NCBI RefSeq assembly: GCF_964213995.1
Contig: NC_135813.1
Location: forward strand, 74,772,001-74,836,000
Source: Mustelus asterias
Lineage: Eukaryota
DNA length: 64,000 bases
Direction of reading: 5' to 3'
The position numbers were made by a program, and so were the translations under genes. The first letter of the stretch is position 1, and every line of letters starts with the position of its first letter. Below are positions 8,801 through 60,300 of the stretch, piece after piece. The notes under the pieces were generated by a model. That model was not told the origin of the DNA, did no database searches, and saw nothing but the letters and a program-made list of their open reading frames with translations.

Positions 8801-11800
8801 AATCCTGACTCCAACTAGAGAACTGGCATTACAGACCATGAAGTTCACAAAAGAGGTAAAATACTTCCTTCTGGCTTTATGTATTCAATAAATCTGGAAT
8901 TAGATTAGCAAGCATGGAATCTAACAGTTATTTGGTTCCTAAATAGTTTGTTGCATTCATATTGCTACAGTAGAGGCCTTAAAGTGTTTTTTCAGTACCA
9001 TTTTGAAATTCTTACCATTCCAGGAGAATTTAAACTGTTAAAAACAAACTGCATTATTAAGCAATCACACGAAGTGATGGGTAAAATTTGAACAGATTAG
9101 GACAGCTGTAGTATATCTTTATGTCTGACTGAGTGTTCTCTGTCTTGCTTTTCCATGATGTGGAGATGCCGGCGTTGGACTGGGGTAAACACAGTAAGAA
9201 GTCTCACAACACCAGGTTAAAGTCCAACAGGTTTATTTGGTAGCAAATGCCACTAGCTTTCAGACGAAGGAGCAGCACGCTCCGAAAGCTAGTGGCATTT
9301 GCTACCAAATAAACCTGTTGGACTTTAACCTGGTGTTGTTAGACTTCTTACTGAATTGATTTTTCATGTCAGGCAAGCCAACAAGAAGTTAAATATCAGG
9401 AGCAGATAGTCTCAAATAAATCAAAATATTCGTGTCTCAAAATTGTCCGTCACACAAAAAAGAAAATATTTGCATTTATAGAACGCTTTTTATAACCGTC
9501 GGATATCTCAATAATTTTTTCCACTCAATTAAGTATATTTTTACTACAGCCATTTTGCAATGTAGGAAACCTAATTCATCAAGCAAAGAAAAATCTTTGT
9601 ATTTGTGTAACATCTTACCATAACTCTTAAAAACATTCAAAATAGCTTCATAAACAATAAATTACATACTTTAACTTTACATACTTTAACTGCGGATTAA
9701 TCCGGGATAGTCAGCACAGATTTGTGAAGGGCAAGTCGTGCATCACAAATTTGATAGAATTTTTTGAGGAGGTAACAAAGTGTGTTGATGAAGGTAGGGC
9801 AGTTGATGTCATATACATGGATTTTAGTAAGGTATTTGATAAGGTCCCCCATGGTCGGCTTATGATGAAAGTAAGGAGGTGTGGGATAGAGGGAAAGTTG
9901 GCAGATTGGATAGGTAACTGGCTATCTGATCGAAGACAGAGGGTGGTGGTGGATGGAAAATTTTCGGACTGGAGGCAGGTTGCTAGCGGAGTGCCACAGG
10001 GATCAGTGCTTGGTCCTCTGCTATTTGTGATTTTTATTAATGACTTGGAGGAGGGGTTTCAGATAAAGCTCGGCAGGGTGGATCAGTAAGCTTGCTGATG
10101 ACACCAAGATTGGTGGAGTAGTGGATGAGGTGGAGGGCTGTTGTAGACTGCAAAGAGACATAGATAGGATGCAAAGCTGGGCTGAAAAATGGCAGATGGA
10201 GTTTAACCCTGATAAATGTGAGGTGATTCATTTTGGTAGGACAAATTTAAATGTGGATTACAGGGCCAAAGGTAGGGTTCTGAAGACTGGAGGAACAGAG
10301 AGATCTTGGGGTCCATATCCACAGATCTCTGAAGGTTGCCACTCAAGTGGATAGAGCTGTGAAGAAGGCCTATAGTGTGTTAGCTTTTATTAACAAGGGG
10401 TTGGAGTTTAAGAGCCGTGGGGTTATGTTGCAACTGTACAGGACCTTGGTGAGACCACATTTGGAATATTGTGTGCAGTTCTGGTCACCTCGCTATAAGA
10501 AGGATGTGGAAGCGCTGGAAAGAGTGCAAAGGAGATTTACCAGGATGCTGCCTGATTTGGAGGGTAGGTCTTATGAGGAAAGGTTGAGGGAGCTAGGGCT
10601 GTTCTCTCTGGAGCGGAGGAGGTTGAGGGGAGACTTAATTGAGGTTTATAAAATGATGAAGGGGATAGATAGAGTGAACGTTCAAAGACTATTTCCTCGG
10701 GTGGATGGAGCTATTACAAGGGGGCATAACTATAGGGTTCATGGTGGGAGATATAGGAAGGATATGAGAGGTAGGTTCTTTACGCAGAGAGTGGTTGGGG
10801 TGTGGAATGGACTGCCTGCAGTGATAGTGGAGTCAGACACTTTAGGAACATTTAAGCGGTTATTGGATAGGCACATGGAGCACACCAGGATGATAGGGAG
10901 TGGGATAGCTTGATCTTGGTTTCAGATAAAGCTCAGCACAACATCGTGGGCCGAAGGGCCTGTTCTGTGCTGTACAGTTCTATGTTCTAAAATCATAATT
11001 TTGTATATTATAAAATGTAACTGGACAAAACATAGTTAGAGTTACATTACTGATATAAAGTTAAAGTTATTAGTCACAAGTAAGGCTTACATTAACACTG
11101 CAATGAAGTTACTGTGAAATTCCCCTAGTCGCCACAGTCCAGTGCCTGTTCAGGTCAATGCACCTAACCAGCGCATCTTTCAGAATGTGGGAGGAAACTG
11201 GAGCACCCTGGGGAAACCCATGCAGACACGGGGAGAACGTGCAGACCCCACACAGACAGTGACCCGGGTCCCTGGTGCTGTGAAGCAGCAGTGCCACCGT
11301 GCTGCTATGGAATGTGCCTTTGGTGCTTCCTTACTCCAGTACAGTTTTCCTTGATACATAATGTGTGTAGTTACTTCTTTACTGCTGATTGGAACTAATA
11401 AATCCAAAGAATGAGCATAGTTTTTTCATCTGGATGTGTTTGTGTATTAATTCCACTTAATAGGATATTTTATCTTTTAAACTAATATTAAAGAAAAGAT
11501 TATATTATTTGTATAAATAAAGCACGGATATTGTCCAGATTAAGAATTGTGGTCCAGAGTTATCTATTACATATTTCAGATTTTATTTTGGAATATTTAT
11601 TTAATGCTGGTTATAGAGCCTTGACAAATGCTTCATGCTTGTGTTGAATAAATATACCATTCATTATCAAAATATAAACAAAAGCTTTACTGCACACAAT
11701 TTTCTGATCTATCTTTATTTGCAGCTTGGAAAATTTGCTGGCTTCAAAACAGCTTTAATCTTGGGCGGAGACAAGTGAGTATCTTTTTGGATGGTAATCT

Positions 11801-14800
11801 GTACTTTTGATGGTGTAATTTACTTGAACCAAGCAAAACCAAGAATGTAATGGGATGTGTGATACTTTTCTTTTTAGAATGGAGGATCAGTTTGAAGCAC
11901 TTCATGAAAATCCTGATATGTAAGTTAACTTTTTTCTTGAACGTTATTTGATGATGACTAACCACTTGCGATGATCCCTAGAATTAGTTTTATTAATTTC
12001 TTCAAGTGCAGTACCAAATCTATCTTGTGATAGAACAAGGCTTTGGTTTGTGCATTATTAAGATCCGCGACGACCTGAAATTCCTTTTATCAAACAAACT
12101 TTGTGAATTTTATTGTCTTTAAAAATATCCTCTGTAAAGAATTAGAAATATCTCCTGTAAAGAATTGGACAAACAGTTAAACTCAAAGTTTTGTAATGTT
12201 CTTTATTGAAATGAAGTGTTACCTGAAATAATTTTCGTTTTACATTTGTTGATGTGAAGAGAATGCCACGATAGGAATGCTAAATTAGCAATGTTGTCCA
12301 ACGTAGCTGGGGGGGAAAAACGTGGGCATGCTAATGAAATTGGTCTTTTTGTGGTAGTTTGGGGACAGCATAATGTGATTCAATGTTGGAGCATGAGTGC
12401 TCAAGACTTTGCACTAAAGGATGAGCATGAGCCAAATCATGCGTTCAGCTCTTGATTTTTAGTTGACATGTTTTTATTTATACATGGAGGAAATTCATGC
12501 ATGCTGGTCTCTCTTGATGGGTGACTCTAGAGAGCATTAGGTCATATCAGCTTTAGCAATGAAAAGTAAATTGGTCAAGACAGGCTGAAATTTAGGAGTA
12601 ATTTACAAATAAACAAAACTATGAAAAATAAACCTTGAATTGGATAGCTCAAACAATTTCTTTCTGCTCTGTGCTTCAAGGTTTTTAAATAATTTCTCTC
12701 ATTAGGGCTGGTAAATGTGAGTCACAACAACAAGATCCTCCCCCTTCCCACTGCAAGTTGATCTTCAGCTAAGCGCAGGTGTCCTGAACCCTGGCACCAG
12801 GCAGGCAACATAGCCTTCTGGGTTCTCGCTCCTGCTGCTACTACTACTAATAGGCTTTACCACTGCTAGTACCTTATTACTACAGCTAATAAAACCTTAC
12901 TAACAAATTATGAGCATCAGAGATTCTTATTATTTCAATTAGTGTTATACTTAATCCATCTGAATTCCTTAATTTAGGTAAGAGAAAATTGACTCTGTCA
13001 GCTGAGCAGTTCAGTCATTAAGTATTCAGGCAATTACCAGTGAATGCGAGATATGTGACATTGAATTAATGAGTACCTTAAATATTTACACACCAGGAAT
13101 GATTTTATGTAGACTTATAACCTGCACAGTTTGTTCATTTTACAGAATAATTGGCACACCAGGTCGTTTAATGCATGTCGCTGTGGAAATGAACCTAAAG
13201 CTGTACAATGTTGAATACGTGGTCTTTGATGAAGCTGACAGGTAAAATTTATCTCTTTCTATTATTATTGCTGAATGATATTGGTGATTTTAATAATGCA
13301 ACCTAATATCTAAGTTTTAAAGAAACATAGAAACTAGAAGCCGAAGGAGGCCCTTTGAGCCTGCTCTGCCATTCATTTTGATCATGGCTGATCGTCAAAT
13401 TCAATATCCTGATCCCATATCCCTTAATCTGTTTAGCCCCAAGAGCTTTATCTAATTTCTTCTTGAAATCAGACAACATTTTGGCCTCAACTACTTTCTG
13501 TGAGAGTGAATTCCACACATTCACTGCTCTTTGAGTGAAGAAATTTCTCCTCGCCTCCGTTCTAAAAGGTTTATCCTTTATCCTCAAACTACGACCCCTA
13601 GTTCTGGACTCTCCCACCATTGGGAACATCATGGAGCAGTGTCTATATATCGTACTTTTCGTGACTAAAGGACATCTCAAGAACATTATGATCCATGCCG
13701 TTTTATTTAAAATGTAGTCACTATTGTAATTTAGGAACCACAGCAGCCAATTTATGCACTGCAAGGTGTCACAAATAGCAACGAAATAAATGATCAGATC
13801 ATGTCATAGGGTTGGTGAAAGGATAAATGTTGGTAGGACACAACTCTCCTGCTTTACTTTTAATGATGACTTTTAAGGTCATTTTGCACTCACTTGGGAG
13901 GCAGACATGGCTTTGATTTAACATTTCATCACAAAGGCGCAACTGCCGTATTCCCATTTGTAGTTGGGGAACTTTCGATGGTGGCCTAATCTCTTAGAAA
14001 AACTAAGTATTCTTGAAAATTAAATCTCGCAAAAGCAAATTCTCAGCTTAAAGCGTACTAAAATTTATTTAAGCATATAGAACATACAAAAAGACAAAAC
14101 ATTAATCTACTGCCGAAGGGAGGCCTTCAGATTGCCAAGCGGTAGAGTGCCAGAAAGCCTTTCCGAAGATCTAATACTTTGTGCCAAAATTCAATACAAT
14201 TATACCTTTCTCTTCTCTAAGTTTTTCCTGCTAATTAGCTGAATACAATTCTATTTTATTATTGTGTAAATCTTATTATGACAGATTACCTCAGCCAATT
14301 GTGATACGCCACCCGATATCGTGACATTCTATTGGCCTATTCCAATTCCTGATCACCGTCTATTTGGCATAACCCATTTCCTAATCTTTGTGTTAGTAAG
14401 GATGCCATTCCTTGTCTACCTCATCATCGACAAATTGCTAAAGCATAGATAATACCAAGCTTGGGCCCAAAGATTTGATATCGTTTTGTGCTTTGACAAC
14501 ATAGGCATCATTGTTATTAATATGATATGCATAATATACATATATGTATATATTATAATATGTTATATATATATATTATATATAATTTTGTCTCCCGTTC
14601 CGTGCTGTGAATTTGTCTGATCTGAAATTGCCCATGGTTTTCATTCCCCTGTCAATCTAGTTTAAACCCTGCCCAACAGCAGTAGCAAACCTTCTTCCGA
14701 GGCTGTTTGTCCCGGTCCTGTTCAAGTGTAGATTTATACAGATCCTATTCTCCCCAGAACTGGGAGAGAAGGCCATAACTTTTACTTTTTTTTAATCAAA

Positions 14801-17800
14801 TGCGGAGGAACATAGTCATAGGACTGCTAATTAGTTTTTACAACAAGAAAAAAATTATTAAACATGGAAAAAATGGATTACGATGCACTCCACTATTCAC
14901 CCCTGAGCTTAACAATTACACACAGATTTTAAGATGAACACGGGTGACAGTATATTTGAAGCTACATTAGTATTCACACTCAAGTTAATGGCTGTGAATT
15001 TCTCCTCAGAACTCCCTCCAACTGATTGTCACAAGAGTTTCCAAACACTCCCAAAACATGCTTTTTAAAATCGTTTCTTGGAATAATACTTTCATTTAGC
15101 GGTTCGCATTCCAGAATTCCGTCCAGATTTTACAAATGACACTTTTAAACAAAGTTTCTGCACCACTTTTAAGAGCAATTCAATATATAACTGGAAAGCT
15201 AGTATTGGAAGGAAGGCATCAAATTTCTGAGACATTGGGACCAGTTCTGGGGAGAATAGGATCTTTCTAGTTAGAACATCAACTGGGATCGTAACAGTGC
15301 ATTGGCAAAAAGTTCTGTCCTACCTTTATGATTAATTATAGACTATACTGATCATGGAAGCACAATCATGAATCTGGAAAGTTTTGAATATAAAATTACT
15401 GCCACACTAAGATTAATCTGAATAGGGTGACTGTTCTCTCGTACTGCCTGACGTGTAAACATTGGTGAATGACTCTCTTTGTAAATGTGCCAATAGTCAA
15501 TATGTAACATATTTCACAAGGACAAAGTAGAGGATGTAGAGAATAGAAATGTTTGCTAATGGTACAAAACTAAAATCTGCTGTAAACCTTTGTTTTGTGC
15601 CAGGTTGTTCGAGATGGGATTTGCAGAGCACTTGCAAGAGATTATCAGAAGGTTGCCAGACTCCAGACAGACTTTGCTGTTTTCAGCCACATTGCCGAAG
15701 CAACTGGTGGAGTTTGCACGTGCTGGTAAAGGATATTATTGCCTTGCTTTGTTTTTATATAATCTCATTTATTTTAAATGAAAGAGCAAGTTGTTGGCCA
15801 CAATCTAATCTCTGGTTCCAGTGGATGGGCAGTGAGTAACTAAAACATAAAGAACAGGAAAATGCCAGATTCAATTCTAATCTGTGGCATTAACTGACTT
15901 CAGCTGTGGTAATGGTAGGTCGTGCTGTGCTTGTTTATTTTAGGTTAAGGATTGGAGAATCATCCCGGAGTACTATTCTGATTGCTTTCAGTCTCTCCCT
16001 ACTTGAAATACGCCTGTCTGGATGAGCATCTTTTGGATTCAGAGGCAATATTTCTTGTCAGTATCTAGATTGATGAACGGGTGCTGAGTTGATAGAGTGG
16101 CTGGAGCGTATGTAATTGTATCTCAGCAAAGAGCCTTAATTAGAGGAGGAGAGAAAATTGGCATAATAATAGAGGGGCAGAATCTTTTTAGTTTATTTAT
16201 TATTAGTGTCACAAGTAGGCTTCCCCCAGTCACCACACATCTTTTGGACTATGGGAGGCAACCGTAGCACCCAGAGGAAACCCATGCAGACACGGGGAAA
16301 TGTGCAGACTCCGCACAGGCAGTGACCCAAGCCGGGAATCGAACCCAGCTCCCTGGCACTGCGAGGTAGCAGTGCTAACCGCTGTGCCAAAAATGATCGG
16401 TTTTTATTCAATTTCTGGATAAAGAACAGCGTGCAAATGTTAAAATCTAATTGCAGCTATAAATTTTTAGTTTAAAATGTTAGTTAATTTACTGGTACAA
16501 TGTACTTTACACAAGAACGTGCAAGACCGTACAGCCCTATGCGTGAGGTCTTGATTTGATTTGATTTATTATTGTCACATGTATTAATATACAGTGAAAA
16601 ATATTGTTTCTTGTGCGCTATACAGATAAAGCATATCGTACATGGGGAAGGAAAGGAGCGAGTGGAGAGTGTAGTGTTACAGTCATAGCTAGGGTGTAGA
16701 GAAAGATCAACTTAATGCAAGGTAGGTCCATTCAAAAGTCTGATGGCAGCAGGGAAGAAGCTGTTCTTCAGTCGGTTGGTACGTGACCTCAGACATTTGC
16801 ATCTTTTTCCCAGTGGAAGAAGGTGGAAAAGAGTATGTCTGGGTTGTATGCGGCCCTTGATTATGTTGGCTGCTTTTCCGAGGCAGCGGGAAGTGTAGAT
16901 AGTGTCAACGGATGGAAGGCTGGTTTGAGTGATGGACCTTTGTTAACAACTGAAATCTTTATCCATATTTTTGTCTACTCAATAGAACACACACATTTTA
17001 GAATTGTTGTTGAGCAGGCAAACACTGAAATACTGAACTGAAATTATGCCATCATGTGCTTTGTCACTGTTTTTCCCTTGGGTATTTTTATACATTAGCA
17101 CTGCCAAAGTTATGTGTCTCAGAAAATGCCCAAACAATTCAATGGCAAGGTGCATAGTGGTAGTAAGGGTATTTATGTATTTAAACTTCTGCTCAGTCAG
17201 TAGCTCTCAGGTGGAATAAATATATGCTGCATTATATTTCAATGGATTCTGTTTTTTTACATCGAAAATAGTCGTTTACTATCATGTTTAATTTCTGTAT
17301 AATGTAAAAATTTGTATCTGAAATTGAGGAAAAGTAACAGCTAAAGGTTAGTCATGTGTCCCATTGAAAGCCCTAAATGGATCGATTTTAATGAGCCCTC
17401 CCCCCACCCCCTTTTTAATTGTTTTAAGTATTTCTGAGTACGTAAATGGAAGCTTAAATATATGTCAGCAATAAGCTGTTCAAAAATAGTCTATTTGTCA
17501 TTTTCTTGTTAATATGAACTATAATATTTTTATAACTTGTAGTGATCTGTTTTTTGTCTGTAAAGTTTGAAAAGCTACTTAATAAAATAATTTTTAAACA
17601 TGCACCTTTCCAGGTTTGATGGAACCAGTATTAATCCGGTTAGATGTGGACACTAAACTGAATGAGCAGCTACAAGTAAGAAATTTTTTATAATGATATG
17701 CCGTGTAAAATAAAAACAGAGGAAAGAAGTGTGTTTAATCTTTCAAAGTTACACTGTACAGAGTATGGCATTATTAAGTTTAAACTTAGAGCATATCTTT

Positions 17801-20800
17801 GTTGTGGAGAGTTACAGTAAGTACATCTGGTACAGTTATATTGCAACATTCATTTGTCCAAAAGCTAGGCCTGTTACAATTACCTGTTTCTGTAACAGCA
17901 CCAATGATGAAATAGTCATTCTTATCAATTGTAACAATCTGCAATTGAAGAGGATATAAGGAGTTGGTGACAGGATATAGATAGGTTAAGTGAGTGGCCA
18001 AAAACTGGCAGATGGCATATGATATTGGAAAGTGTGAACGTATCCACTTCAACAGAAAAACAGTACAACTAAATGGAGAGTGATCACCAAACTCTGCGGT
18101 ATAGAGGGATGTGGATGCCCAGATACATGAATCGCAAAAGGTTAGTGTGCAGGTACAGGAGGTGATTAGGAAGGCAAATGGCTGTCATGGCAAGGGGAAT
18201 GGAATATAAAAGTAGGAAAGTTTTGCTAGAGTTATACAAGGCTTTGGTGAGATCATTTCAGAAGTACTAAGTCCAAAGGCGATGACCTGGTGGCATTATT
18301 GCTCGACTATTAATCCAGAAACTCATCTAATGTTCTGGGGACCCGGGTTCAAATCTTGCCACAGCAGATGGTGGAATTTGAATTCAATAAAAAAAATCTG
18401 GAATTAAGAATCTACTGATGACCATGAAACCATTGTCGATTGTTGAAAAAATCCATCTGGTTCACTAATGTCCTTCAGGGAAGGAAGAGGATATAATTGC
18501 ATTAGAAGCAATTCAGAAAAGGTTCATTCCACTGATTCCTAGAATGAAGGGATTATCTTGTGAGAGAGGGTTGGGCATGTTAGATCTGTATCCATTGAAG
18601 TTTAGAGGAATGAAAGGTGATCCTAAGGGGTCTTAGCAGGGTGAGAGGATGTTTCCCCTTGTGGGAGAGGCCAGAACAAGGAGACATAATATAAAAATAA
18701 GGGGGGAGATTCTCCCAGCCCGCTGTGCTGCTCTAGTTGGCATCTAGCGATCAAGCTACCCAACGATCGGGAGGCCGGCAGTGCAGGCTAGTGCGCATGC
18801 GCCAATCTTGGTGCTGACAGATCAGCTCATGCACAGTGGCTCGCTCAGCACTATGCGTGAATAGGCCCGGCCCCTGATTTTCACCGTGATTCACACTAGG
18901 GCATTTTGATAGTCCCTCTAAAATAAGCAGTTTTTATGCAAATTTAGCACTTAGAATTTTTGGGGGGTGAATTCCACCCAAGAGGGTCTCCAATTTAAGA
19001 AGGAGGTGAGATTTATTTTCAGAGGGTTGTTAATTCTTTTTAGTAAGAAGTTTAACAACACCAGGTTAAAGTCCAACAGGTTTATTTGGTAGCAAAAGCC
19101 ACACAAGCTTTCGGAGCTGCAAGCCCCTTCTTCAGGTGAGTGGGAATTCTGTTCACAAACAGAGCATATGAAGACACAGACTCAATTTACATGAATAATG
19201 GTTGGAATGCGAATACTTACAACTAATCAAGTCTTTAAGAAACAAAACAATGTGAGTGGAGAGAGCATCAAGACAGGCTAAAAAGATGTGTATTGTCTCC
19301 AGACAAGACAGCCAGTGAAACTCTGCAGGTCCACCCAACTGTGGACCTGCAGAGTTACAAATAGTGTGACATGAACCCAATATCCCGGTTGAGGCCGTCC
19401 TCGTGTGTGCGGAACTTGGCTATCTTCTTTTTAGAGCAGTGAAGGTATGGTCATTGAATATTTTTAAGACTGAGTTAGATTGTTGATTAACAAATAAGTT
19501 AGAGGTTATAGGAAGTAGAGAGGAAAGTAGAGTTAAGTGGATTGGCCATACAAAATTGGCCCTTGGTGTCAGGGGGATTAGCGGGATAAATATGTGGGGT
19601 TACGGAGATAGGGCCTGGTGGGATTGTTGTCAGTGCAGGCTCAATGGGTTGAATGACCTCCCCCTGTACTACAGTGATTCTATGATTCTATTCTAGTTGA
19701 GGCCACAATCAGATCAGCTGTGATCTTATCAAATAGCGGAGCAGGCTTGAGGGTCTGAACAGCCTACTCCTTCACCCAATACATATATTCATAACCTTTT
19801 CAAATGCATTGTGTCTTCTAAATACAAAATGATTTGCAAAATTGTTGTGAATAAATTTATACAAATCTAGATTAAATCTGTTCAGATCTGAATGAAATTT
19901 GAGCTGGTGAGAATTTGATTCGTTATGGGAGGTGATAATTAAAAAGTAACAGTAAATGAGTATAATTTAATTGTTCAGGGAGCTTCAAATTATGTGATTA
20001 AGAATTAGGAAATTTGACTGTCGAGTAGTCTATCTTGTTTTAAGAACTCAGACTTGATCATCTTATTTTAGAATAATAGACAATTAACGTGCATTTCCAT
20101 TAAAACATTATATTTTGTTTTTTACAGTTGGCATTTTTCCACGTGCGGGCCGATGACAAGACAGCTGTTCTGCTTCACTTGTTGAGAAATATCATCAAAC
20201 CTCAAGAACAGACTGTAATTTTTGCTGCTACCAAACATCATGTGGAATACTTAAAGGAGGTTTGTGTCAAATGTGAAGATGTACAAAGTTGTTCAAACTA
20301 AATGGCAACTCTTAGCCAGAAGAACTGCGTTTGTCAAGGATCTCCATTTGGCTTAATTTGACTTTGTTTTAAGCCCCCCCTTTGAATACTAAAACCATGT
20401 TAAATTTCAAAATTGAACAATTATTCTGACAGGTAAAGAATAAAAATTAATTGCACTCCTCTCAATGCACCACCAGAATAGATTGGAGTTAGGAAATTAT
20501 GACATAAATAATGTAAAGAATGCAATTAATGTCCAATACCTTTCTGGTAAGGGTGCAATTACTCATCGTTTGGTCTTTAATACATTGATCCTACTGGCAA
20601 TATATTTTCTTAAATTTGTGTGTTGTCAGAACAAATCTTTTTTTCATATTAACCTACACCCAAAGTAGCCAAAATTGAACCCAGCATCAGAGAATAAATA
20701 ATATTTGGCGTTGGTGCTTGTCATTGTTAACCAATCAATTGCTCTGACGAAGGGTCATCTAGACTCAACGTTGGCTCTATTCTTTCCCCACAGATGCTGT

Positions 20801-40664: not shown

Positions 40665-40912
40665 CAAAAGTAAAATACTGCAAGTGCTGGAAATATGAAA
40701 TAAAACCATAAAATGCTGGAAAAATTCAGGTCTGGTAGCATCTGTGCAGAGGAAAAAGAGTTAAGACTTCAGGTCAATGACTTCATTTGAGCTCAAGAAC
40801 TTGTATTATACTTGAATTCTAATGAAGGGTCGTTGACCTGAAACATAAACTCTCTTTTTCTCTCTACAAATGCCAACTGATCTGCTGACTATTCCCAATG
40901 TTTTCAGTTTTT
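40665..40912. mobile_element. Family B fold-back element with degenerate hammerheads
   Basis: Inverted arms. CTAATGAagggtcgttgacctGAAACAT at ~40819-40846. Confidence 0.7.
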
Positions 40913-41149
40913 GTATCACAAATGTGTAATTAGCTTTGAAGAGGACTACACAAAAGCAGGGCAGGTGAACAACTGTTTTGTCATCCTGTACTGTGGGTGT
41001 CAGGTAATTTTTGCAATCACCATTTCCTTGTGCTAAAATGAGCGAATCATTGACTATTTGGAACTACGTGAACCCGTGTCTAACCAATTAATGTTACAGT
41101 ATTTTTATAGATAATTTACTTCTTAGTGAGCAGGTAAGATGAAACAAAG

Positions 41150-41339
41150 ATAAAAGCAAAATACTTTGGGTGTTGGAATCTAAAACAAAAACAGAAAATG
41201 CTGGAAAATCTCAGCAGGTCTGACAGCATCTGTGGAGAGAGAATAGAACCAATGTTTCAAGTCAGTTCTGATGAAGCGTCGGGGGCTCTATTCACTCCAC
41301 AGATGCCATCAGACCTGCTGGGATTTTCCCCCATTTTCT
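41150..41339. mobile_element. Family B fold-back element
   Basis: Tail plus inverted arms. 16-bp TSD gtaagatgaaacaaag (41134-41149 and 41340-41355). Confidence 0.82.
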
Positions 41340-41636
41340 GTAAGATGAAACAAAGCTGCTTTTAGCTGAACTATACTTATGCAACCGTCCCTTCTTTTCA
41401 ACACATATAAGACTCAGTTACATAACTAGGCCCATATTTTCCACTTTGAGGCCTCAGACCCATGGGAAATGATACCTCAAGCGTCTATAATACTGGAGTT
41501 AGCAAATGTGCCATGTTCAATATGGAATTCAAGGCGCCTAGGTCAGATTTCTCATTTCTAGAGGTTTTTCTTACCCAATGTTACATAACACTTAGGAGTA
41601 GCCACTAAGCCCTTTGAATCTGCTCTGCCATTCAAT

Positions 41637-41849
41637 ATGATGTGCAGATGCTGGCATTGGACTGGGGTGGGCACAGTAAGAGGTCTCCCAACACCAGGTT
41701 AAAGTCCAACAGGTTTATTTGGAATCATGAGCTTTCAGAGCACTGCTCCTTCATTAGATGAGTCACCTGATGAAGGAGCAGCACTCCGAAAGCTCGTGAT
41801 TCCAAATAAACCTGTTGGACTTTAATCTGGTGTTGGGAGACCTCTTACT
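41637..41849. mobile_element. PLE family A (variant subfamily) fold-back insertion
   Basis: Tail plus inverted arms. TSD attcaata(t/a)ga. Inserted in a CR1 3' remnant. Confidence 0.85.
41760..41802 (+). ncRNA. Minimal hammerhead motif
   Basis: gagtcac-CTGATGA-a-ggagc agc actcc-GAAA-gc-TC-gtgattc, 7-bp stem I including one G-U. Confidence 0.7.
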
Positions 41850-42169
41850 ATTCAATAAGATTATGGCTGATTAGTATGGTCCCAGCTCCACTTCTTCTTC
41901 TCTCCCCACCCCATGACCCTTGAATCCTTTGTCTATCAAAAATCTAACTCTGCCTTTAATAAATCCATTTTTTTCTGATGAGAACCCAACACATCTACAT
42001 TAATTGAACAAGGTATTCCTCTGATCTGGAAATTGCTCAGGAGGTACCCTTACAATTTTTGAATGATTGGCACAGATAATGGGTCTTCTGTAGATGTGAG
42101 CTTTAGCAAAGTACATTCAACTTGATATTTTGACTTCTCCTACATGTCATATAAATACACATACATACT

Positions 42170-42175: not shown

Positions 42176-42272
42176 GTCATAATAGAACAAGTGTAAAACT
42201 TCTCATTCATTAATTTTGTCGTATTTATAAACTAAGCAATGACCATGGAAGGTAATTGCACTATTAATATGT

Positions 42273-42356
42273 TTATGGAGTTAAAGGCGTGCTAAACTCG
42301 AAACTTTTCTTCAGTTCTTGTACCATATCACTCAATTCTAGGATGTGCTGCTGAAT
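42273..42356 (-). CDS. CFAP73: CFAP73 terminal coding exon
   Basis: tgcag|[27 protein letters not shown]. Not in the ORF track. Confidence 0.8.
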   Translation of the reverse strand: MQQHILELSDMVQELKKSFEFSTPLTP

Positions 42357-48300: not shown

Positions 48301-51300
48301 ACTGAATTCCCCAGATTATAAACAGGTTAAGTCTTAGTTAGACTACTGAAACCTGTGTAAAATGATGAGATCTAAGGATTTTTGGCTTAATTTCTAGAAA
48401 ACACTTACCCCTTTTATAACTTTCGCTTTGGCATCTTCCAATCGAGCTTGTAATGCAGCCAGGCTATTATGGTATGTCATAACATCATTATTTTTTTCTT
48501 TCATGAATTGGTTATGATTGGCTTTAATTGTCTTTATGACTTCTTGATCTTCATTGTACTTTGCAATTAGGAGGTCATATGTATGAAATAAAGTCTCAAA
48601 ACGTGTGTTCACCATCCTGATGTCCTGAAACTTAAAAAAAAAAGCAACAAGAAAATCAGGAGCAGTTTGTTTATATACCAAGAGTTTGAGAAAAAATAAA
48701 TTTACTAACACTTGCATCCAAGTGAGGAACGGTTGAGGATTCTGGGTCTGTACTCGTTGGAGTTTAGAAGGATGAGGGGGGATCTTATTGAAACTTACAG
48801 GATACTGCAAGGCCTGGATAGAGTGGACGTGGAAAGGATGTTTCCATTAGTAGGAAAAACTAGAACCAGACGGCACAACCTCAGGCTAAAGGGACGATCC
48901 TTTAAAACAGAGATGAGGAGGAATTTCTTCATCCAGTGAGTGGTGAATCTATGGAACTCTTTGCCGCGGAAGGCGGTGGAGGTCAGGTCATTGAGTAAGA
49001 CAGAGATAGATAGGTTCTTGATTAATAAGGGGATCAGGGGTTATGGAGAAAAGGCAGGAGAATGGGGATGAGAAAAATATCAGCCATGATTGAATGGCAG
49101 AGCAAACTCAATGGGCCGAGTGGCCTAATTCTGCTTCTATGTCTTTATGGTCTTATGGCGTACAGTCTTGCATCAATCTTAAAGAAAAGGGCCTCTATTA
49201 ACTTATTAACGCCAAGGTTCCTTGTTTCTGTCTGTAATATCACTTATCTTTACCTCCCGCCATTGAAGCTGAATTGCTTGCACATACTTCTGCAACATCC
49301 AGATTTATTTGCTGGTCTTTCAGGTGTCATCCTTCACAGAATGAAACACATCCAAAACCTTGCTGTTTCTCTTTCTTAGGGCAGAATGAACTGGTGTGCA
49401 GGAGGGGCGGGTACAATTGGATGCCATGGCAGAAACCCATTGCCTGCCCACTCTTGCTTACATGTGGCATGGAGCATCAGGCAGCCTACTCACCAGTGGG
49501 CCATTTGTGGCCCTTAGATGGCCAATTAATGCCTACTTTAGACCTCCTCCCACCATCGCTAGGATCTGCCCTACAGCAGAGGGTGGGGGCCAAGTATCCA
49601 GACCACCAGGTGAAAACCAGCAGCCTTGTGGCCGGGCTGGAGTGGGAGTTGTTGGTGCCTCATGTCTCAGGGGTGGTACAGTGGTTAGCACTGCTGCCTC
49701 ACAGCGCCATGGACCTGGGTTTAATTCCCGGCTTGGGTCATTGTCTGTGTGGCGTTTGCAGATTTTCCCCGTGTCTGCATGGGTTTCCTCCGGGTGCTCC
49801 GGTTCCCTCCCACAGTCCAAAAGACGAGCTGGTTAGGTGGATTGGTCAAGCTAAATTGCCCCTTAGTGTCAGGGGGACTAGCTAGGGTAAATGCATGGGG
49901 TTATGGGGATAGGGCCTGGGTGGGATTGTGGTCAGTGCAGACTCGATGGGGGTCGAATGGTCTCCTTCTGCATTGTAGGATTCTATGATTCTATCCTCCT
50001 CATGCCCATTAGAGGCACCCCAAGGTATTTCCCAGCTCCCCACACAAACCTCCTCGACCAGCACTTGCTGGGCCCTGCCAGCCAGGCTCCAGCAAGAACC
50101 TGAACTTACCTAAAGGCTTGCGCCCCATCAGCATTTCCTCCTCGGGCCTGCATACAGCCTCAGCTATGATCAGCGTACCCAGTGGCATTGCTTGGACAAG
50201 AGCGCTGCTGGCCATTGATCGGCAGGCAGCTTTCAAGAGGTGGGATACGTTGCTGAGGACAGAAGAAGGGCTGCCTCAAATCAATGACACTAAATAGCTG
50301 CAGCAAAAGCCGGCCAAGCACAGTTGGGCTCACCTCTGAATTTAGCACAGGGCGGGACAACTGGCCCCAACATAAAATTCAGCCCCAAATCCCATTGCTT
50401 TATTACCCCATTCTTGTTAAACTTCAAAGGTTCCACCTCCACCAACTTCAAAATCCTTGCCATCATCTATTAGTCTCTCTAAGACCTTGTTGCTCTCTAT
50501 CTCCTCAAGACCAACATTCCATCATACGTTCACTGATCTTCCAGCTCGGGCCTCCTTTGCGTCCCTCTCTATTTTGGTTCCATCTTTGGCTGCAAACCAT
50601 TCAGCCAGTTTAGTCCCATAGTTAGGAATACTCTCTCTGTATTATCTCTCTCCATTAATTCAAAGGCCTCCCCAAAACCTATTTAAACAGTATTTAAAAA
50701 CTCTGCAACTAGCCTCAATGAGTATGCCACTACGGTAACTGACTTCGTTAGTAAATGTGTAAAAGATTGTGCCAAAGAAGCAAATCCGCGTGTTTCCCAA
50801 CCGGAAACCATGGATAAACAGGGATAAACACAGTAAGAGTTTTAACAACACCAGGTTAAAGTCCAACAGGGATATCCACTGCTTGCTGAAGTCTAGGTCT
50901 GAGGCGTTCAAGCCAGGCGACACTGACCTATACAAGAAACAGTAAGAAGTTTAACAACATCAGGTTAAAGTCCAACAGGTTTATTCCTGTTGGACTTTAA
51001 CCTGGTGTTGTTAAACTTCTTACTGTGTTTACCCCAGTCCAACGCCGGCATCTCCACATCATGACTATACAAGAAAGCCAGATATGATCCAAGAAGATCC
51101 ATCAAAGATGCCAAAAGACAGTACCGGACCAAGCTAGAGACCCAGGCTAGCCACATGGACCCCTGCCGATTATGGCAAGGTCTGCAAGATATAATAAGCT
51201 ACAAGATGGTGGGTGCATCAAATGAAGCTTTGTGGGTAGAGCTTAGGAATAAAAAAGGGACAGCTACATTGCTAGGTGTTTATTATAGACCCCCAGATAG

Positions 51301-54300
51301 TCAGTGGTAAATTGAAGAGCAAATATGTGCGCAATTCGCAGAGGGGTGTAAAAATAATAAGAGGATAATTATATTAGGTGATTTCAACTTTCCCAACATT
51401 AATTGGGATAGCCATCATGTTAAGGGCTTAGATGGAGTAGAGTTCTTAAATTGTATACAGGAAATCTTCTTAGGTCAATAAGTGGAGGATCCAACAAGGG
51501 AAGGAGCTATGCTGGATCTAATTTTGGCGAATGAAGCCGGACAGGTGGTTATGTGTTGGTGGGGGAGCATTTTGGTGATAGTGACCACAACATGGTTCAA
51601 TTCAAATTTGTTATGGACAAAGAAATTGACAAGTTGCAGAAAAGGGCCTTGGATTGGGGGAGATTAGATTTTAACAAAATTAGGCAGGATCTGGTCAAGG
51701 TAGACTGGAACGAGTTACTCGTGGGAAAATCTACAGAAGAGCCGGGGGGGGTGGGGGGGGGGGCAGTGTTCAAAAATGAAATGGGGAGGGTACAGGCCCA
51801 ACATGTTCCTTCTAGGGTAATAGGAAGGTGTAACAAATCCAAAGAACCATGGATGACCAGAGACATCCAGGATACAAAGAGAAGGAAAAGAGAGACTTTT
51901 AGCAAGTATAAGAGGAGTAAGTCTGTGGAGGCATTAGTGGAGTACAGAAAGTGCAGGATGGAGTTTAAGAAATCAATTAGGAGAGCAAAGATGGGATATG
52001 AGAAAGCTCTGGCTGGTAAAAATAGGGAAAATCCTAAGATATTTTATAAGTATATCAGTGGGAAGAGGATAACCAGGGAAAGAGTAGGGCCCATTAGGGA
52101 CCAAGAGGGAAATCTGTGGGTGGAGGCAGAGGACATTGGTAGGGTGTTAAATGAATATTTCACATCTGTCTTCACCCATGAGAATGAGGAGGTAGTTATG
52201 GAACTTGGGAAGTGAGACTGTGAGGCTCTAGAGAAAATTATCATAGGGAGTGACAAGGTATTGGAGGTAATAGCGGGCTTAAAAGTGGACAAATCTCCAG
52301 GTCCGGGTGAATTGTGTCCCAGGCTGTTGTGGGAGGCAAGGGAGGAAATTGTGAGGGTTCTGACCCAAATTTTTAATTCCTCCCTGGCCTCCGGGGAGGT
52401 GCCAGAGGATTGGAGAACAGCTACTGTGGTCCCACTATTTAAGAAAGGTTGTGGAAACAAGCCAGGGAACTACAGACCAGTGAGTTTCACATCTGTGGTT
52501 GGGAAAGTACTTGAGAAGATTCTGAAGGAGAGAGTCTATCTCCATTTGGAGAGGCAAGGTTTGATCAGGGATGGTTAACCATCAGCATGGTTTTGTCAGA
52601 GGGAGGTCATGCCTAACAAATTTGATTGAATTTTTTGAGCATGTAACCAAGTGTGTGGATGAGGGTTGTGCGGTTGATGTAATTTACATGGATTTCAACA
52701 AAGCCTTTGACAAAGTCCCACATGGGAGACTTATTAAGAAGGCTAATGCACATGGGATACAGAGTGATCTGACAAGGTGGATTCATAATTGGCTTAGCTG
52801 TCGGAGGCAGAGGGTGGTGACAGACGGCTGCTTTAGTGACTGGAGGCCAGTGACCAGTGGCATACCACAGAGATCCATGCTGAGCCCCCTATTGTTCGTC
52901 ATTTATATAAATGTCATAGATGACTATATGGGGGGGTAAAATCAGTAAGTTTGCCGATGACACAAAGATTGGCCGAGTGGTTAACAGTGACGTTTAGTGT
53001 CTTGAGTTACAGGAAGATATAGATTGTAGAAAAAAAATCATAGAAACCCTACAATGCAGAAAGAGGCCATCTGGCCCATCGAGTCTGCACCGATCACAAT
53101 CCCACCCAGGCCCTACCCCCACATCCCTACACATTTACCCGCTAATCCCTCTAACCTACGCATCTCAGGACACTAAGGGGCAATTTTTTTAGCATGGCCA
53201 ATCAACCTAACCCGCGCATCTTTGAACTGTGGGAGGAAACCGGAGCACCCGGAGGAAACCCACGCAGACACGAGGAGAATGTGCAAACTCCACACAGACA
53301 GTGACCCAAGCCGGGAATCGAACCCAGGTCGCTGTAGCTGTGAAGCAGCAGTGCTAACCACTGTGCTACCGTGCCGCCCCGTGATCAAGATGAGATGGTC
53401 AAATGGGCAGATAAATGGCAGGTAGAATTTAACCCTGGAAAGTGTGAGATGATGCACTTTGGAACGAGTAATTTGACACTGGGAAGTTCTGACACTGGGA
53501 AGTTCCGAAGAACAAAGGCACCTTGGCGTGTTTGTCCATAGATCTCTGAAGGCAGAGAGGCAGGTTAATAGGGTGGTGAAAAAGGCATATTGCACACTAG
53601 CCTTTATCAATTGGGCTATAGATTACAAAAGCAGAGGGGTCATGATGGAGTTGTATAGAACTTTGGTGAGGCCTCAGCTGGAGTACTGTGTGCAGTTCTG
53701 GCCGCCACATTATAGGAAGGATGTGAATACACTGGAGGGGGTGCAGAGGAGATTCACCAGAATGCTGCCTGGGATGGAACATTTAAGTTATGAAGAGAGG
53801 TTTGATAGGCTTGGGTTGTTTTTGTTGGAGCAGAGAAGACTGAGGGGTGACCTGATTGAGGTGTTCAAGATTATGAGGGGCATGGCAGGGTGGATAGGGA
53901 GTAGCTGTTCCCCTTGGTTGAAGGGTCAGTCATGAAGGGACACAAGTTAAAAGTGAGGGTGGGAGGTTTAGGGGGGATTTGAGGAAAAACCTTTTTACTC
54001 AGAGGGTGGTGACGTTCTGGGATGCACTGCCTGGGAAGGTGGTGGAGACAGGAAGCCTCACATCCATTAAAAAAGTACCTGGATGAGTACTTGGCATGCC
54101 ATAACATTCAAGGCTATGGGCCAAGTGCTGGCAAATAGGATTAGGTGGGTAGGTCAGAGCATTTCATGCGTCGGTGCAGACTCGATGGGCCGAAGGGCCT
54201 CTTCTGCACTGTAGTATTCTGTGATTCTCTGATGTAAAATCGCCAGCTCCAACGCACCCCTCCCTGATGAGCTCAATGCATTCTATGCCCGTTTTGAGCA

Positions 54301-57300
54301 AGAGGTCAGCGAGAGCACGCCCTCCACCCTGGAAGCCTCAGATGAACCTGATGTATCTGAGATCACCATGACAGATGTCAGAACAGCCTTCTCGAAGGTC
54401 AGCCCACGGAAAGCGACTGGCCCGGATGGGGTACCCGGACGAGCACTCAGATCCTTTGTGGATCAGCTGGCAGGGGTATTTGCAGACATCTTCATCCTCT
54501 CTTTACAACAATCTGAGGTCCCTGTCTGCTTTAAGAAGACAACCATCATCCCGGTACCAAAGAAAAGCCAAGCAGCGTGCTTTAATGACTGTCATCCAGT
54601 CGCTTTGACATCCATCATTATGAAGTGCTTTGAAAGGTTAGTCATGGCACAAATCAATTCCAGCACCTGGATTGCCTGGATCCACTATAGTTCGCCTACC
54701 GCCGCGACAGGTCCACAGTGGATGCCATCTCCCTGGCCCTGCACTCAACCCTGGAACACCTAGATGATAAAGTCACCTATGTCAGACTCTTATTTATTGC
54801 CTACAGCTCAGCCTTCAACACCATCATTCCTGCGAAACTCATCTCCAAACTCCTCAACACCGTGCCCCACTAGACTGTGTCCTCAGCCCTCTATTATACT
54901 CCTTATACACCGATGACTGTGTGGCCAAATTCCCCTCCAATTCGATTTTCAAGTTTGCTGACAACACCACCGTAGTGGGTCGGATCTCAACCAGTGACGA
55001 GACAGAGTACAGGAATGAGATAGAGAATCTGGTGAACTGGTGCGACGACAATAATCTCTCCCTCAATATCAACAAAACAAAGGAGATAGTCATCGACTTC
55101 AGGAAGCACAGTGGAGAACATGCCCCTGTCCACATCAATGGGGACGAAGTAGAAATGGTTGAGTGCTTCAAGATTTTATGTGTCCAGATCACCAACAACC
55201 TGTCCTGGTCCCCCCATGCCGACACTATGGTTAAGAAAGCCCACCAACGCCTCTACTTTCTCAGAAGACTAAGGAAATTTGGCATGTTTGCTGCTTCTCC
55301 AGCTTTTCCACCAACTTTTACAGATACATCATAGAAAACATTCTTTATAGTTGTATCAGAGCTTAGTATAGCTCCTGCTCTTCCCAAGAACGCAAGAAAC
55401 TACAAAAGGTCGTGAATGTAGCCCAATCCATCACGCAAACCAGCCTCCCATCCATTGACTCTGTCTACACTTCCCGCTGCCTTGGAAAAGCAGCCAGCAT
55501 AATTAATGACCCACGCACACGGACATTCTCTCTTCCACCTTCTTCCTTCGGGAAAAAGATACAAAAGTCTGAGGTCACGTACCAACCGACTCAAGAACAC
55601 CTTCTTCCCTGCTGCCATCAGACTTCTGAATGGACCTACCTCGCACTAAGTTGATCTTTCTCTACACCCGAGCTATGTCTGTAACACTACATTCTACACT
55701 CTCTCCTTTCCTTCTCAATGAACGGTATGCTTTGTCTGCATAGTGCAAGAAACAATACTTTTCACTGTATTCCACTAATACATGTGGCAATAATAAATCA
55801 AATAAAATAAATCAAATCAAATCAAAAGCCTATTGCTTTAAGACCATCTTCAATCATTACCTACTTCCAGAACTACTTGTATCTGATTATGTTTGCCTCT
55901 GTGAAGCATTAAGTGTGCTAAAAGAAAAGTGCAAGCTATTCATTCCCCTTCCAAAAAAGTACCATACATACAAAACTTAAGCGACACATTCTTTAAACAG
56001 TTACCTCCTTTGACATTTTGATTACGTTCTCCAAGAATTTTGGATAAATGGAATATGCCTCCACTTTCTTCTTCAGTTTCTCCCTCTTCTTGATGAGATC
56101 TTCCAGCTCTATTTTAAATTGAACAAGATCCTTTTCCTTCTGTTTTATTAGTTCGGTCTCAGTAATTATTTTGCTCTTTGCTCTTTTTTGCTTGGCATCA
56201 TTTTCCTTAGGAGGCGGAAGAGGTAAAGTAACAAGCATCACTGCACAAATTACTGTCACGTTAAAAAAACGGTTTTGAATAGGTCATCTTCCCCTGCAAA
56301 CCCTTTTAAGTTGCATCTCTAATTCAGGCCTAATGATTGCCTAGGATTGTGGGAGGCCCTTGTCTGAATATCTTACCCTGAGTTATTCCCTCACTTAAGA
56401 TGAGCAAATAATATAGCTTCCGCATGCCCTTTGATGACCTAAATTGAATGTTCCCAGTCACTTTTATTGGAGCAATATTACTGCCTCTGAACCCGAAGCT
56501 CTGGGTTCGAGTCCCACCCCAGGACTTGATGGCCAAGGGAGGTGGGTTTATAAAGCCGCCGATAGGTTGACTGTCAACTTGCAAAAATGCTTCCAACACG
56601 TCAATGGCGGGCGGTAAGAGTGGGGGAGACTCCTGGTCAGCCAGGCCTGGTGTGAAGTGACGCCCCTCAAGTTATAAGCCTCCCACAATGAAAGTTGGTA
56701 CGTGCAATTTGAGATCACTGGGACCGCAAATGTACATTCAGACCCCTGGCTCAGAAATGTCTCATCTGCCAATGGCCAAAAGCATGTATTGTGTGGTCTT
56801 CGAAACCAATCAACACAAAACATTTGGCACTGACCTCTGGAGGCCCTGTATGACCTGGTAGGCCTCAACATTAAAATGTAACAAGGCCAAGTACCAGGAG
56901 TCGAAGTCATGTCTTGATAGACACAATTGTCCAAAACTGGCAGTGATACTAGAAACAACAGGGTATGTTACACAGTGAACGTTCTGATCCACTTGGAAAT
57001 AACAAGTAACAGACTCTATACTCCTTAAAGGAGCAAAGTGCCTGCTGCTGGCAGTTTAAAATAAACCATGCTCTTTCCCTTTAACTAAATGAAACTAGAG
57101 ATGGACTTAGAGCAGTCGGAATGCTAAAAACCAAAAGCTGCTTAAAAGCCCACATGAATCATAGAAATCGTAGAATCCTACAGTGCAGAAGGAGGCCATT
57201 CAGCCCATCGAATCTGCACCGACCACAATCTCACCCAGGCCTTATCCATAACCTCATGCATTTACTCTAGCTAGTAGCCCTGACACTAAGGGGCAACTTA

Positions 57301-60300
57301 GCATGGCCAACCGCACAGGAGTAGAGGCCACTACTGAATAGTTATACTTTAGCTCTTCTTTTCTGACTTGTGATACATAGAATTATACAGAATCTATAGC
57401 ACAGAAACAGCCTGACTATGCCAACAAAAGTATATGCCTTTGTTTGTGCTCGAAATCAGCTTCCTCTCACCATGTTTGATCTAACCTTATTAACATAATC
57501 TTTTACTCCTTTCTCCTTCATAGGCTTATTGAGCAATCTCTTAAATGCAACCATGCTACTAACCTCAGCTACTCCGTGTAGTAGCAAGTTCCACATTTCA
57601 ACTACTCTGAGAAATTCACCAAAATTTCTTCTTGTATTCATTAGTGATGATTTTATATTTATGACTGTTAGTTTTGGATTCTCCGACAAGTGGAAATATA
57701 TTCTGTACGTTCCCTCTATCAATCCCCTTCATAATTTTAAAGTCAGCTATTAGGACATCCCTCAACTATCCCTTCTTTAGAGAAAAAAGCTATGGCCTGT
57801 TCAGTCCTTCGTGATGGTCATATCCCTTTGGTTCTGATATGATTCTTGTGATTATCGTTTGCACCCTTCTCCGGTTCTTGTATATCCTTGTTGTGATGTG
57901 TAGACCAAAGCTGTAAGCTGGACAGCTGGTTCATTATGCAGAGCGACGCCAACAGCGCGTGTTCAATTCCTGTCCCGTCTGAGGTTATTTATGAAGGCCC
58001 CACCTTCTTAACCCTGCCCCTTGCCTGAGGCGTGGTGATCCTCGGGTTAAATCACCACCAGTCCTTTTTTACCTTTTCACATTGTTTGTATTTTTTAAGG
58101 CTCTGTTAAACTTGTGTTGCGAGTTTTTGTTTGTCTGTATCCCTGCATCTCTTTACTTCCACGGAATATGTTGATTGGCCAGGTTAAAAATTGCCCCTTT
58201 AGAATCCTGAGATGCGTAGGTTAGAGGGCTTAGCGGGTAAAAATGTGGGGGTAGGGCCTGGGTAGGACTGTGGTCGGTGCAGACTCGATGGGCCGAATGG
58301 CCTCCTTCTGCACTGTAGGGTTTCTATGATTTCTTCCTTTTATCCCTTCCAAAATGCACCACCTCATACTTATCTAGATTGAAATTCATTTTTAATTGCA
58401 CACCCTAAGGTTAACTAACTTATCAATTATCTCTCCTTTCTGTCTTAAATGTTACTATATCTTTTTAAACCTCATTTTCCAATATTATGTTCACCATGTT
58501 AGTCTCCCGGGTAAATATTGAGGCAATGCAATGATTCAATATTTATGCCATTCCTTTGTTATTATCTTTAAGTTTATACTTTTTATTATTAAGTGGCACA
58601 GCCTTCCTGATCTGCTTATTCCTCTGCCAATCAAGATGTGGCTCAGGTACTTATCTAGAGATTACCACTCATGAAATCCTGCTTTGTAATTGTTTCCTAG
58701 CTCCTCCTACTCCCTCATTAGCACCTCCTCCTTGTTCTTTCCTATGTAATGCCTCCTGACATGGACCCACAAGAACTGAATCTACCTCCTCACCCCCCCC
58801 GTGACCCCCCTTCTTTATCAAGCTGTCCCTCTGAGATACCCTTTAACCATTGCATCAAGGAGGCAGCACATCCTCCTGGACTCTCACTCACGACAGCAGA
58901 GAATGCTATCTGTCTTCCTAATTATCAAATCCCCTGTGTTTGCACCCATTCTACTCTGTTCCTCCCTGTCTTTAGACTGCCTCCTGCTCCTTGGTGCCAT
59001 GGTTAGCATTCTAGCCATCTTACTTGCACACTTCATCCTTATCCTTATAGGTAGTTTACATTGAGGCCTTGTGGCACAGCCTCTGAGCCTGAAGCTCTGG
59101 GTTCAAGTCCCACAGTAAGAAGTCTCACAACACCAGGTTAAAATCCAACAGGTTTATTTGGTAGCAAATACCATAAACTTTCGGAGCGCTGCCCCTTCGT
59201 CAGATGGAGTGGATATCTGCTCACAAACAGTGCACAGACACAGAAATCAAGTTACAGAATACTAATTAGAATGCGAATCTCTAAAGCCAGCCAGGTCTTA
59301 AAGGTACAGACAATGTGGGTGGAGGGAGCATTCAACACAGGTTAAAGAGATGTGTATTGTCTCCAGACAGAACAGCTAGTGAGATTCTACAAGCCCAGGA
59401 GGCAAGCTGTGGGGGTTACTGATAATGTGACATAAATCCAACATCCCGGTTTAGGCCGTCCTCATGTGTGCGGAACTTGGCTATCAGTTTCTGCTCAGCG
59501 ACTCTGCGCTGTCGTGTGTCGTGAAGGCCGCCTTGGAGAATGCTTACCTGAAGATCCAAGGCTGAATGCCCGTGACTGCTGAAGTGCTCCCCCACAGGAA
59601 GACCCCTCTTCCTGTGGGGGAGCACTTCAGCAGTCACGGGCATTCAGCCTTGGATCTTCAGGTAAGCGTTCTCCAAGGCAGCCTTCATGACACACGACAG
59701 CGCAGAGTCGCTGAGCAGAAACTGATAGCCAAGTTCCGCACACATGAGGACGGCCTAAACCGGGATGTTGGATTTATGTCACATTATCAGTAACCCCCAC
59801 AGCTTGCCTCCTGGGCTTGTAGAATCTCACTAGCTGTTCTGTCTGGAGACAATACACATCTCTTTAACCTGTGTTGAATGCTCCCTTCACCCACATTGTC
59901 TGTACCTTTAAGACCTGGCTGGCTTTAGAGATTCGCATTCTAATTAGTATTCTGTAACTTGATTTCTCTGTCTGTGCACTGTTTGAGAGCAGATATCCAC
60001 TCCATCTGACGAAGGGGCAGCGCTCCGAAAGCTTATGGTATTTGCTACCAAATAAACCTGTTGGACTTTAACCTGGTGTTGTGAGACTTCTTACTGTGCT
60101 TACCCCAGTCCAACGCCGGCATCTCCACTTCAAGTCCCACCCCAGGACTTGATGGCCAAGGAAGGTGGGTTTATAAAACTGCCGATAGGTTGACTGTCAA
60201 CTTGCAAAAATTCTTCCAACACGTCAATGGCAGACGGTAAGAGTGGGAGAGACTCCTGGTCAGCCGGGCTTGGTGAGGAGTGACACCCCTCAAGTTATAA

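Follow-up and report, generated by a model that had tools for sequence, protein, structure and literature searches.

The six short fold-back insertions described here lie in a stretch of 64,000 nucleotides of the Mustelus asterias genome (GCF_964213995.1, contig NC_135813.1, positions 74,772,001 to 74,836,000, forward strand), which we call the window and whose first letter is position 1. It is nearly certain that these elements, named family A, are 5'-truncated insertions of a Neptune-type Penelope-like element (PLE), with the inverted copy, the tail and the target site duplication (TSD) typical of the class. Their junctions fit priming from two strands better than a snap-back of the cDNA, and in the reading that we favour, with a probability of roughly 0.55, both target strands prime cDNA at two start sites, followed by head-to-head joining of the cDNAs. 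The fold-back pattern itself is known, the family is a new shark member of the PLEs, and the snap-back idea, which an earlier note on this window had put forward, has a precedent from 2013.

Window 59603-60135 served as the family-A reference (reference position 1 being window 59603), and the sample is the six fold-backs of this one 64-kb window, with junction points read by eye. All six are 5'-truncated and have an inverted copy, a tail on one end and a TSD:

9145..9368, minus strand: E1, fold-back in a DDX54 intron; tail arm 9156-9264 (-), tail-less arm 9263-9353 (+)
41630..41857, minus strand: E2, fold-back; tail arm 41638-41763 (-), tail-less arm 41763-41849 (+)
46027..46313, plus strand: E3, fold-back; tail-less arm 46038-46141 (-), filler 46142-46161, tail arm 46162-46302 (+)
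47930..48180, plus strand: E4, fold-back; tail-less arm 47941-48029 (-), tail arm 48030-48169 (+)
50928..51076, plus strand: E5, fold-back; tail-less arm 50939-50985 (-), tail arm 50986-51063 (+)
59102..60140, plus strand: E6, fold-back; tail-less arm 59111-59602 (-), 4-nt centre 59603-59606, tail arm 59607-60128 (+)

A BLAST of the reference against the window returned 15 family-A segments, namely the 12 arms and three solo copies. The paired arms measure 73 nt in E1 (9192-9264/9281-9353), 87 in E2 (41675-41849), 106 in E3 (46038-46264), 97 in E4 (47933-48131), 41 in E5 (50939-51026) and 492 in E6 (59111-60098), with a complementarity of 92-98% across the six inverted repeats; perfect arms reach 61 nt in the window but no more than 9-11 nt in any of five shuffles. 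All six palindromes are present where the earlier note had placed them. The TSDs are exact over 12 bp at 46038, 50940 and 59114 and over 11 bp at 47941, whereas that of 41637 is exact over 8 bp (14 bp with two mismatches) and that of 9155 takes 13 bp with two mismatches (9145-9157/9356-9368). Among random pairs, exact matches of at least 11 bp arose in 1 of 400 and of at least 8 bp in 12 of 400, and 13 bp with two mismatches in 0 of 200. Since every element has a private TSD, the six are independent insertions, as had been claimed, although the claimed TSD range of 11-13 bp is not exact for 41637.

The outer ends of the two arms differ; the end zones and the solo copies are these:

60093..60098, plus strand: proximal end zone in which all six tail-less arms stop (end positions read in six elements; loose contig ends at 60095 and 60097)
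60099..60128, plus strand: tail, present on one arm only; other copies run on to an ATG
36936..37072, plus strand: S1, tail-bearing solo copy with a 7-bp TSD, in the left arm of a family-B fold-back
19034..19434, minus strand: S2, tail-less solo copy (19042-19424) with 78% identity, from an older subfamily; exact 10-bp TSD, inverted arm absent
50818..50874, minus strand: S3, short solo copy that ends mid-tail, with a 5' break as in the E5 tail arm

The tail stands on a single arm in six of six elements, an asymmetry correctly seen before; the outer ends had also been called identical, and they spread over 6-9 nt instead. Tail-less ends fall at reference 491-496 in all six elements, while the tail ends are scattered across some 9 nt, so that the tail measures about 30-43 nt. 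The zone at 60093..60098 would be the proximal start site of reverse transcription (RT), and the tail is predicted, with weak support, to pair with 60057-60067 in a stem-loop (z = -1.74). The earlier note explained the tail-less end as a fixed stop, about 35 nt short of the end, in the copying back of a folded cDNA. However, the same end bounds the solo copy S2 as well as about 500 contigs of a public run, X1, that have unrelated flanks, and a tail-less end that occurs without a hairpin is better read as a second RT start site. The public reads come from four runs compared with the E6 arm, representing three samples at most and possibly another species. In X1, 85,525 contigs were placed on the arm, which points to a very abundant family, neither this count nor the depth along the element being taken as a copy number; contigs of the run leave the element at 60095 (480) and 60097 (532), into mixed, unrelated AT-rich flanks among the 24 of 1456 listed. 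Two opposite-strand joints occur among the 15 listed of 47, both asymmetric (80 and 94 nt); as symmetric joints of this kind are probably invisible in short-read contigs, no distribution was drawn from these two. As to S3, it lies 65 bp from E5, belongs to a similar subfamily and shares with it the 5' break at reference 455, which coincides with the base of the predicted stem that pairs with the tail.

At the centres, the inner ends of the two arms are near-symmetric, as had been noted, with differences of 1-16 nt; 2 of 720 permutations are as close, 2 of 120 without E6, and 2 of 24 inside a cluster of four elements, which is not significant. This cluster comprises four of the six tail-less arms, which stop at reference 389-406, within 18 nt and just 5' of a hammerhead motif, so that the graded series of sizes that had been proposed is not a smooth one. 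The solo S1 (36938) begins at reference 402, in the same zone, the family-B solo 20744 likewise begins at the cluster, and family B echoes it just ahead of its hammerhead-like core; together these positions suggest the 5' end of the RNA. None of the 12 arms ends at the predicted hammerhead cut (after reference 432), consistent with cleavage being dispensable in vitro, as reported in PMC11167929.

Which arm is the longer at the joint varies from element to element. The tail-less arm is longer in E1, by 16 nt and with 2 nt common to both arms, and in E5, where the loop is the last 6 nt of that arm and its exact continuation. The tail arm is longer by 2 nt in E2 (a separate subfamily with a 7-nt deletion on both arms) and by 5 nt in E4. 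In E6 the two arms match in length to about 2 nt, a few extra C lying at the centre, and in E3 to 1 nt, with a 20-nt filler made of short pieces of junction-near sequence in alternating orientations. Such filler resembles the templated insertions of end-joining repair.

These joints bear directly on the snap-back route, in which a tail-primed cDNA turns back on itself at its 3' end and is copied out again, to be cut or halted at a fixed site about 35 nt short of the end, perhaps by the element's own endonuclease. We consider this route unlikely, though by no means negligible. A tail-less cDNA copied as a hairpin has no means of supplying the tail, so the route has to begin with the tail arm, and such a beginning would make the loop tail-arm sequence. 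The tail arm is indeed equal or longer in E2, E4 and probably E6, and the near-symmetric inner ends, the within-element identity (see below) and the templated filler of E3 all suit a snap-back, as does the published ascription of the tail to endonuclease resolution of an intermediate (PMC8557442). However, the loop is tail-less-arm sequence in E1 (16 nt), in E5 (6 nt) and in two family-B elements; the loops of E2 and E4 fit the tail arm and have no natural pairing at the fold from which to prime; S2 is a tail-less copy with a TSD that stands alone; and the tail ends match two RT start sites seen in vitro (PMC11167929). A kindred proposal, made in 2013 for rotifer Penelope elements, takes an antisense RNA as the template for self-priming and has the antisense strand fold at its 3' end and prime the sense copy. 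It was published for head-to-head junction palindromes (PMC3846280) and permits loops on the antisense arm, as in E1 (with a 2-nt pairing) and E5. We judge it improbable, given that the loops of E2 and E4 lie on the sense tail arm, that E5 too has no natural pairing and that the RT in vitro used a sense template (PMC11167929).

In the two-strand priming that we favour, the RT/GIY-YIG protein would nick both target strands, 8-16 nt apart. One nick would prime RT at the distal start site, giving the tail end, and the other would use the proximal site, which lies 30-43 nt upstream, and give the tail-less end. Both cDNAs would copy one RNA, or RNAs of one source, to a nearly equal 5' point: probably, in the short copies, the place a little 5' of the hammerhead motif where the RNA begins, and in E6 a break. 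The cDNA 3' ends would then be joined head to head, either blunt, via 1-2 nt of homology or via templated filler, and fill-in would complete both palindrome and TSD. Some fold-back copying over a short distance may take place at the joint, as in the E3 filler, but would not be the source of the second arm. In vitro, a PLE protein, predicted to form a dimer, has been reported to cut and extend both strands, and the two positions from which its RT sets out match the tail ends (PMC11167929).

Several points weigh against this interpretation. The junctions, read by eye, come from only six plus five elements of the two families. The two arms of E6 end within about 2 nt of each other at an arbitrary site of the open reading frame (ORF), a symmetry that needs one broken RNA under two-strand priming and comes free under snap-back, and the E3 filler shows that local fold-back copying happens. 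A later deletion at the centre could flip the ownership of the loop in E1 and E5, and the loose-end counts in X1 cannot tell solo copies from inverted arms. Moreover, the in vitro data concern a Poseidon-clade element, with no strand difference in the start site, and do not address inverted products (PMC11167929).

Comparison of the arms among themselves shows that both arms of an element stem from one template lineage. The partner arm is the closest sequence in six of six rows, so that identity within elements exceeds that between them, a point that the earlier note had proposed to check (on 38 shared columns 6 of 720 permutations do as well, and on 68 columns, for five elements, 1 of 120). 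It had also proposed to check whether private mutations are mirrored, and E6, whose arms show 8 differences in 492 nt (1.6%), gave none. At 30 of the 40 variable sites listed (169 in all; nine rare in run X1 and one outside the paired zone were dropped), the arms of E6 agree in 26, and the left arm carries the family-common letter at the other four. The right arm has two truly private sites, at which more than 99% of the depth differs, and neither is mirrored. Agreement at most sites with unmirrored private letters points to a common source subfamily followed by separate mutation, and there is nothing to suggest conversion. Symmetric truncation and within-element identity fit a snap-back and two cDNAs from one RNA equally well, and thus do not discriminate between them. 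An arm difference in E1 at a subfamily-variable site (reference 481) was considered as a sign of two templates and was not counted, since by rough estimate about one such match is expected when the arm differences are taken all together.

The same data speak to decay, by which longer insertions with inverted pseudo-long terminal repeats (pLTRs) would have been shortened by central deletion, their arms being kept alike by gene conversion. Palindrome centres are deletion-prone, the longest element is the least diverged (E6, 1.6%), the E1 joint has a 2-nt homology and the family-B element at 41146 is internally deleted. Yet arm length and arm divergence are unrelated (rho -0.09, n = 6), the two private letters of E6 are unmirrored, and solo copies begin where the centres lie, all of which makes decay a poor explanation.

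The assignment to the PLEs rests on the following features of E6 and on its protein relatives:

59605..59793, plus strand: end of the PLE ORF (~60 codons and the stop codon), encoding the C-terminal part of the GIY-YIG endonuclease; a mirrored copy lies on the other arm
60002..60038, plus strand: minimal type I hammerhead motif, helix I 60002-60005 with 60035-60038, core 60006-60012
60014-60026, plus strand: hammerhead helix II, followed by GAAA at 60027-60030 and a predicted cut after 60034 (definition in PMC4209133)

The right arm of E6 translates to 62 amino acids, which gave 16 matches among 24 candidates, including shark proteins at 80-97% and a Mustelus protein at 97% identity. Relatives at 83-97% identity contain DKG, RVT_1 (E 5e-9, P0005) and GIY-YIG (25 bits, above the cut-off, P0003), the 62-residue fragment by itself matching no Pfam family. 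Two cysteines lie between the GIY and YIG halves in all five relatives that cover that stretch, and the two later histidines of the CCHH motif are also in the window fragment; a CCHH motif with two cysteines inside GIY-YIG is described for endonuclease-positive PLEs (PMC8557442). A CX4CxxC linker between RT and endonuclease is found in the four of four relatives that cover it, in a part of the protein that lies outside the window. According to PMC8557442, a CX2-5CxxC linker is common to Neptune and Nematis and absent in Penelope/Poseidon, and Neptune and Poseidon are the vertebrate PLE groups (bioRxiv 10.64898/2026.07.22.740005), hence our term Neptune-type. The hammerhead motif, whole or partial, is present in five of the six fold-backs, downstream of the ORF stop. 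Over 8 arms, 94% of the cells in its helices are paired, whereas sliding the structure lowers this to 32-54%; these arms have U, A or C at the predicted cut and in no case G, and covariation did not go beyond shuffles (43 of 500). Rfam gave no match at gathering score, and the motif was called from core and helices, its ribozyme activity being predicted. BLAST found no partial tandems (pLTR) in the window, and in the public runs the 12 rows listed of 94 include head-to-tail joints that re-enter the element from 60128 and 60094.

The ORF fragment and the hammerhead motif also leave hardly any room for a family of miniature inverted-repeat transposable elements (MITEs) or foldback DNA transposons, a class that short palindromes with TSDs at high density would otherwise recall. 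Six different centres, TSDs of 8-13 bp and unequal ends are likewise at odds with it, and the earlier note was right that the elements are not copies of one MITE.

The earlier note did not name the class of element, for which the signature and the self-priming idea were already published (PMC3846280, PMC8557442). PMC3846280 describes a PLE copy with an adjacent inverted pLTR, an optional 31-bp tail at one inverted end and a 9-bp TSD, which it calls typical of both flies and fish, and proposed self-priming in 2013 from junction palindromes. In PMC8557442, an inverted 5'-truncated copy with a 30-40 bp tail and a variable TSD is given as general PLE anatomy, and tandem and inverted structures as products of "still undefined features" of the cycle (for further background see PMC6155905 and PMC8969392). 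With the published complex insertions (PMC3846280, PMC8557442, PMC2377424) family A shares the head-to-head inverted copy, the tail on one arm, a TSD of 8-16 bp, 5' truncation, a pLTR hammerhead motif, junction palindromes and a tail abutting a likely start codon. However, the emphasis of the published figures is on full or long copies with an added inverted pLTR, whereas here the whole insertion is two tiny near-equal arms. Poseidon_Ac (PAc) of the green anole (PMC11167929) likewise has two ends 30-40 nt apart in a predicted stem-loop, an upstream minimal hammerhead and AT-rich flanks. It differs in being of another clade without the linker zinc finger and in having its start sites inside the ORF, whereas the tail here seems to end at the ATG; that paper offers no model for inverted products. 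With the minimal PLE hammerheads of PMC4209133 our motif shares the 4-bp helix I, the extra base before helix II, the lack of helix III and a palindromic 15.2-16.2, but the opposite-strand motif pairs described there are 100-700 bp apart and those in our short elements 30-60 nt.

In L1 twin priming, two target nicks prime two cDNAs that are joined, the parts being adjacent and non-overlapping, and a TSD is formed. Here the same stretch is copied twice with an offset of the tail, both arms covering the same reference stretch in six of six elements, and the earlier note's distinction from twin priming is upheld. Our literature search met no account of shark PLE fold-backs or of two-strand priming for them, although the PLE reviews of 2005 and 2006 may hold one.

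A second family in the window, family B, has a similar build:

41134..41355, minus strand: family-B fold-back (element 41146-41341), tail on one arm, exact 16-bp TSD
22885-24100, 35006-35173, 36857-37209 and 40666-40914: further family-B fold-backs
20744-20874 and 1975-2072: family-B solo copies

Its five head-to-head structures have a tail on one arm and a hammerhead-like core; they are older, two of them hold nested insertions, and a clear TSD is seen at 41146 only. In the four readable centres the tail-less arm is longer in 35006, 41146 and 40666 (with filler), and one is symmetric. The position of S1 inside a family-B arm indicates that family A was active later than B. From its anatomy family B appears to be PLE-like, no ORF piece having been seen.

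The elements lie in and around two genes, the products of which have Mustelus proteins as nearest relatives among the matches listed:

2749..36310, plus strand: DDX54, 19 coding segments matched
42270..60836, minus strand: CCDC42-like gene, 5 coding segments within the window

Five of the six family-A fold-backs are intronic (9155 in DDX54; 46038, 47941, 50940 and 59114 in the CCDC42-like gene), and the sixth, 41637, lies beyond the first poly(A) signal of the CCDC42-like gene, between the convergent 3' ends of both genes. The two families together have 11 fold-backs in 64 kb, or about one per 6 kb. All seven fold-backs that lie in introns, counting both families, have the tail arm antisense to the host gene (post hoc, two-sided binomial 0.016), the figure becoming 7 of 9 when the two intronic tail-bearing solos are added (0.18); solo 20744 is a counter-example. 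Tails of both families start in a pyrimidine tract closing with AG, which resembles a splice acceptor; S3 is sense to its host gene and lacks the AG. A second acceptor-like tract, ending in CAG, lies at 59975-59993, just upstream of hammerhead helix I, and is found in S2 too; both E3 arms end in its zone. In D. virilis an intron end maps to helix I (PMC4209133). Contig joints at 60108 in the public runs were considered as a trace of splicing and set aside as no evidence, having no GT..AG ends.

Tentatively, and with somewhat less than even odds, these observations could be drawn together in a fixed rule: each strand would prime at its own RT start site on one RNA, with the join at the RNA 5' end, shark genomes would hold very many short products, enough for proof by junction statistics, and the acceptor-like tail would lead to intronic fold-backs being kept mainly with the tail antisense (7 of 7 here). 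About one fold-back per 6 kb would give thousands of readable junctions per shark assembly, which makes these elements a useful mechanism test set and could decide between snap-back and two-strand priming. They also put long double-stranded stems into host pre-mRNAs (492 bp at 98% in E6), possible substrates for RNA editing or small-RNA pathways, and short PLE fold-backs can be misannotated as MITEs.

Three shark models, P0008, P0012 and P0016 (XRCC5, FAM210B and septin 5a isoforms), include the PLE endonuclease end, which reflects either exonisation or annotation error. Pattern scans of metagenome, viral and prokaryote collections returned no loci, and a metagenome protein scan gave six weak GIY-YIG matches among 77 candidates (37-61% over 23-67 amino acids) that were not used. 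The segment 47283-47444 is a coding exon of the CCDC42-like gene, matched by P0021 and absent from the Mustelus model P0018. Finally, decayed long interspersed nuclear element (LINE) fragments, which we take to be CR1-like, occupy 9661-10913, 51535-53935 and 54233-55334, with an RT match at 54771-55331, and E5 adjoins one of them, just upstream of it.

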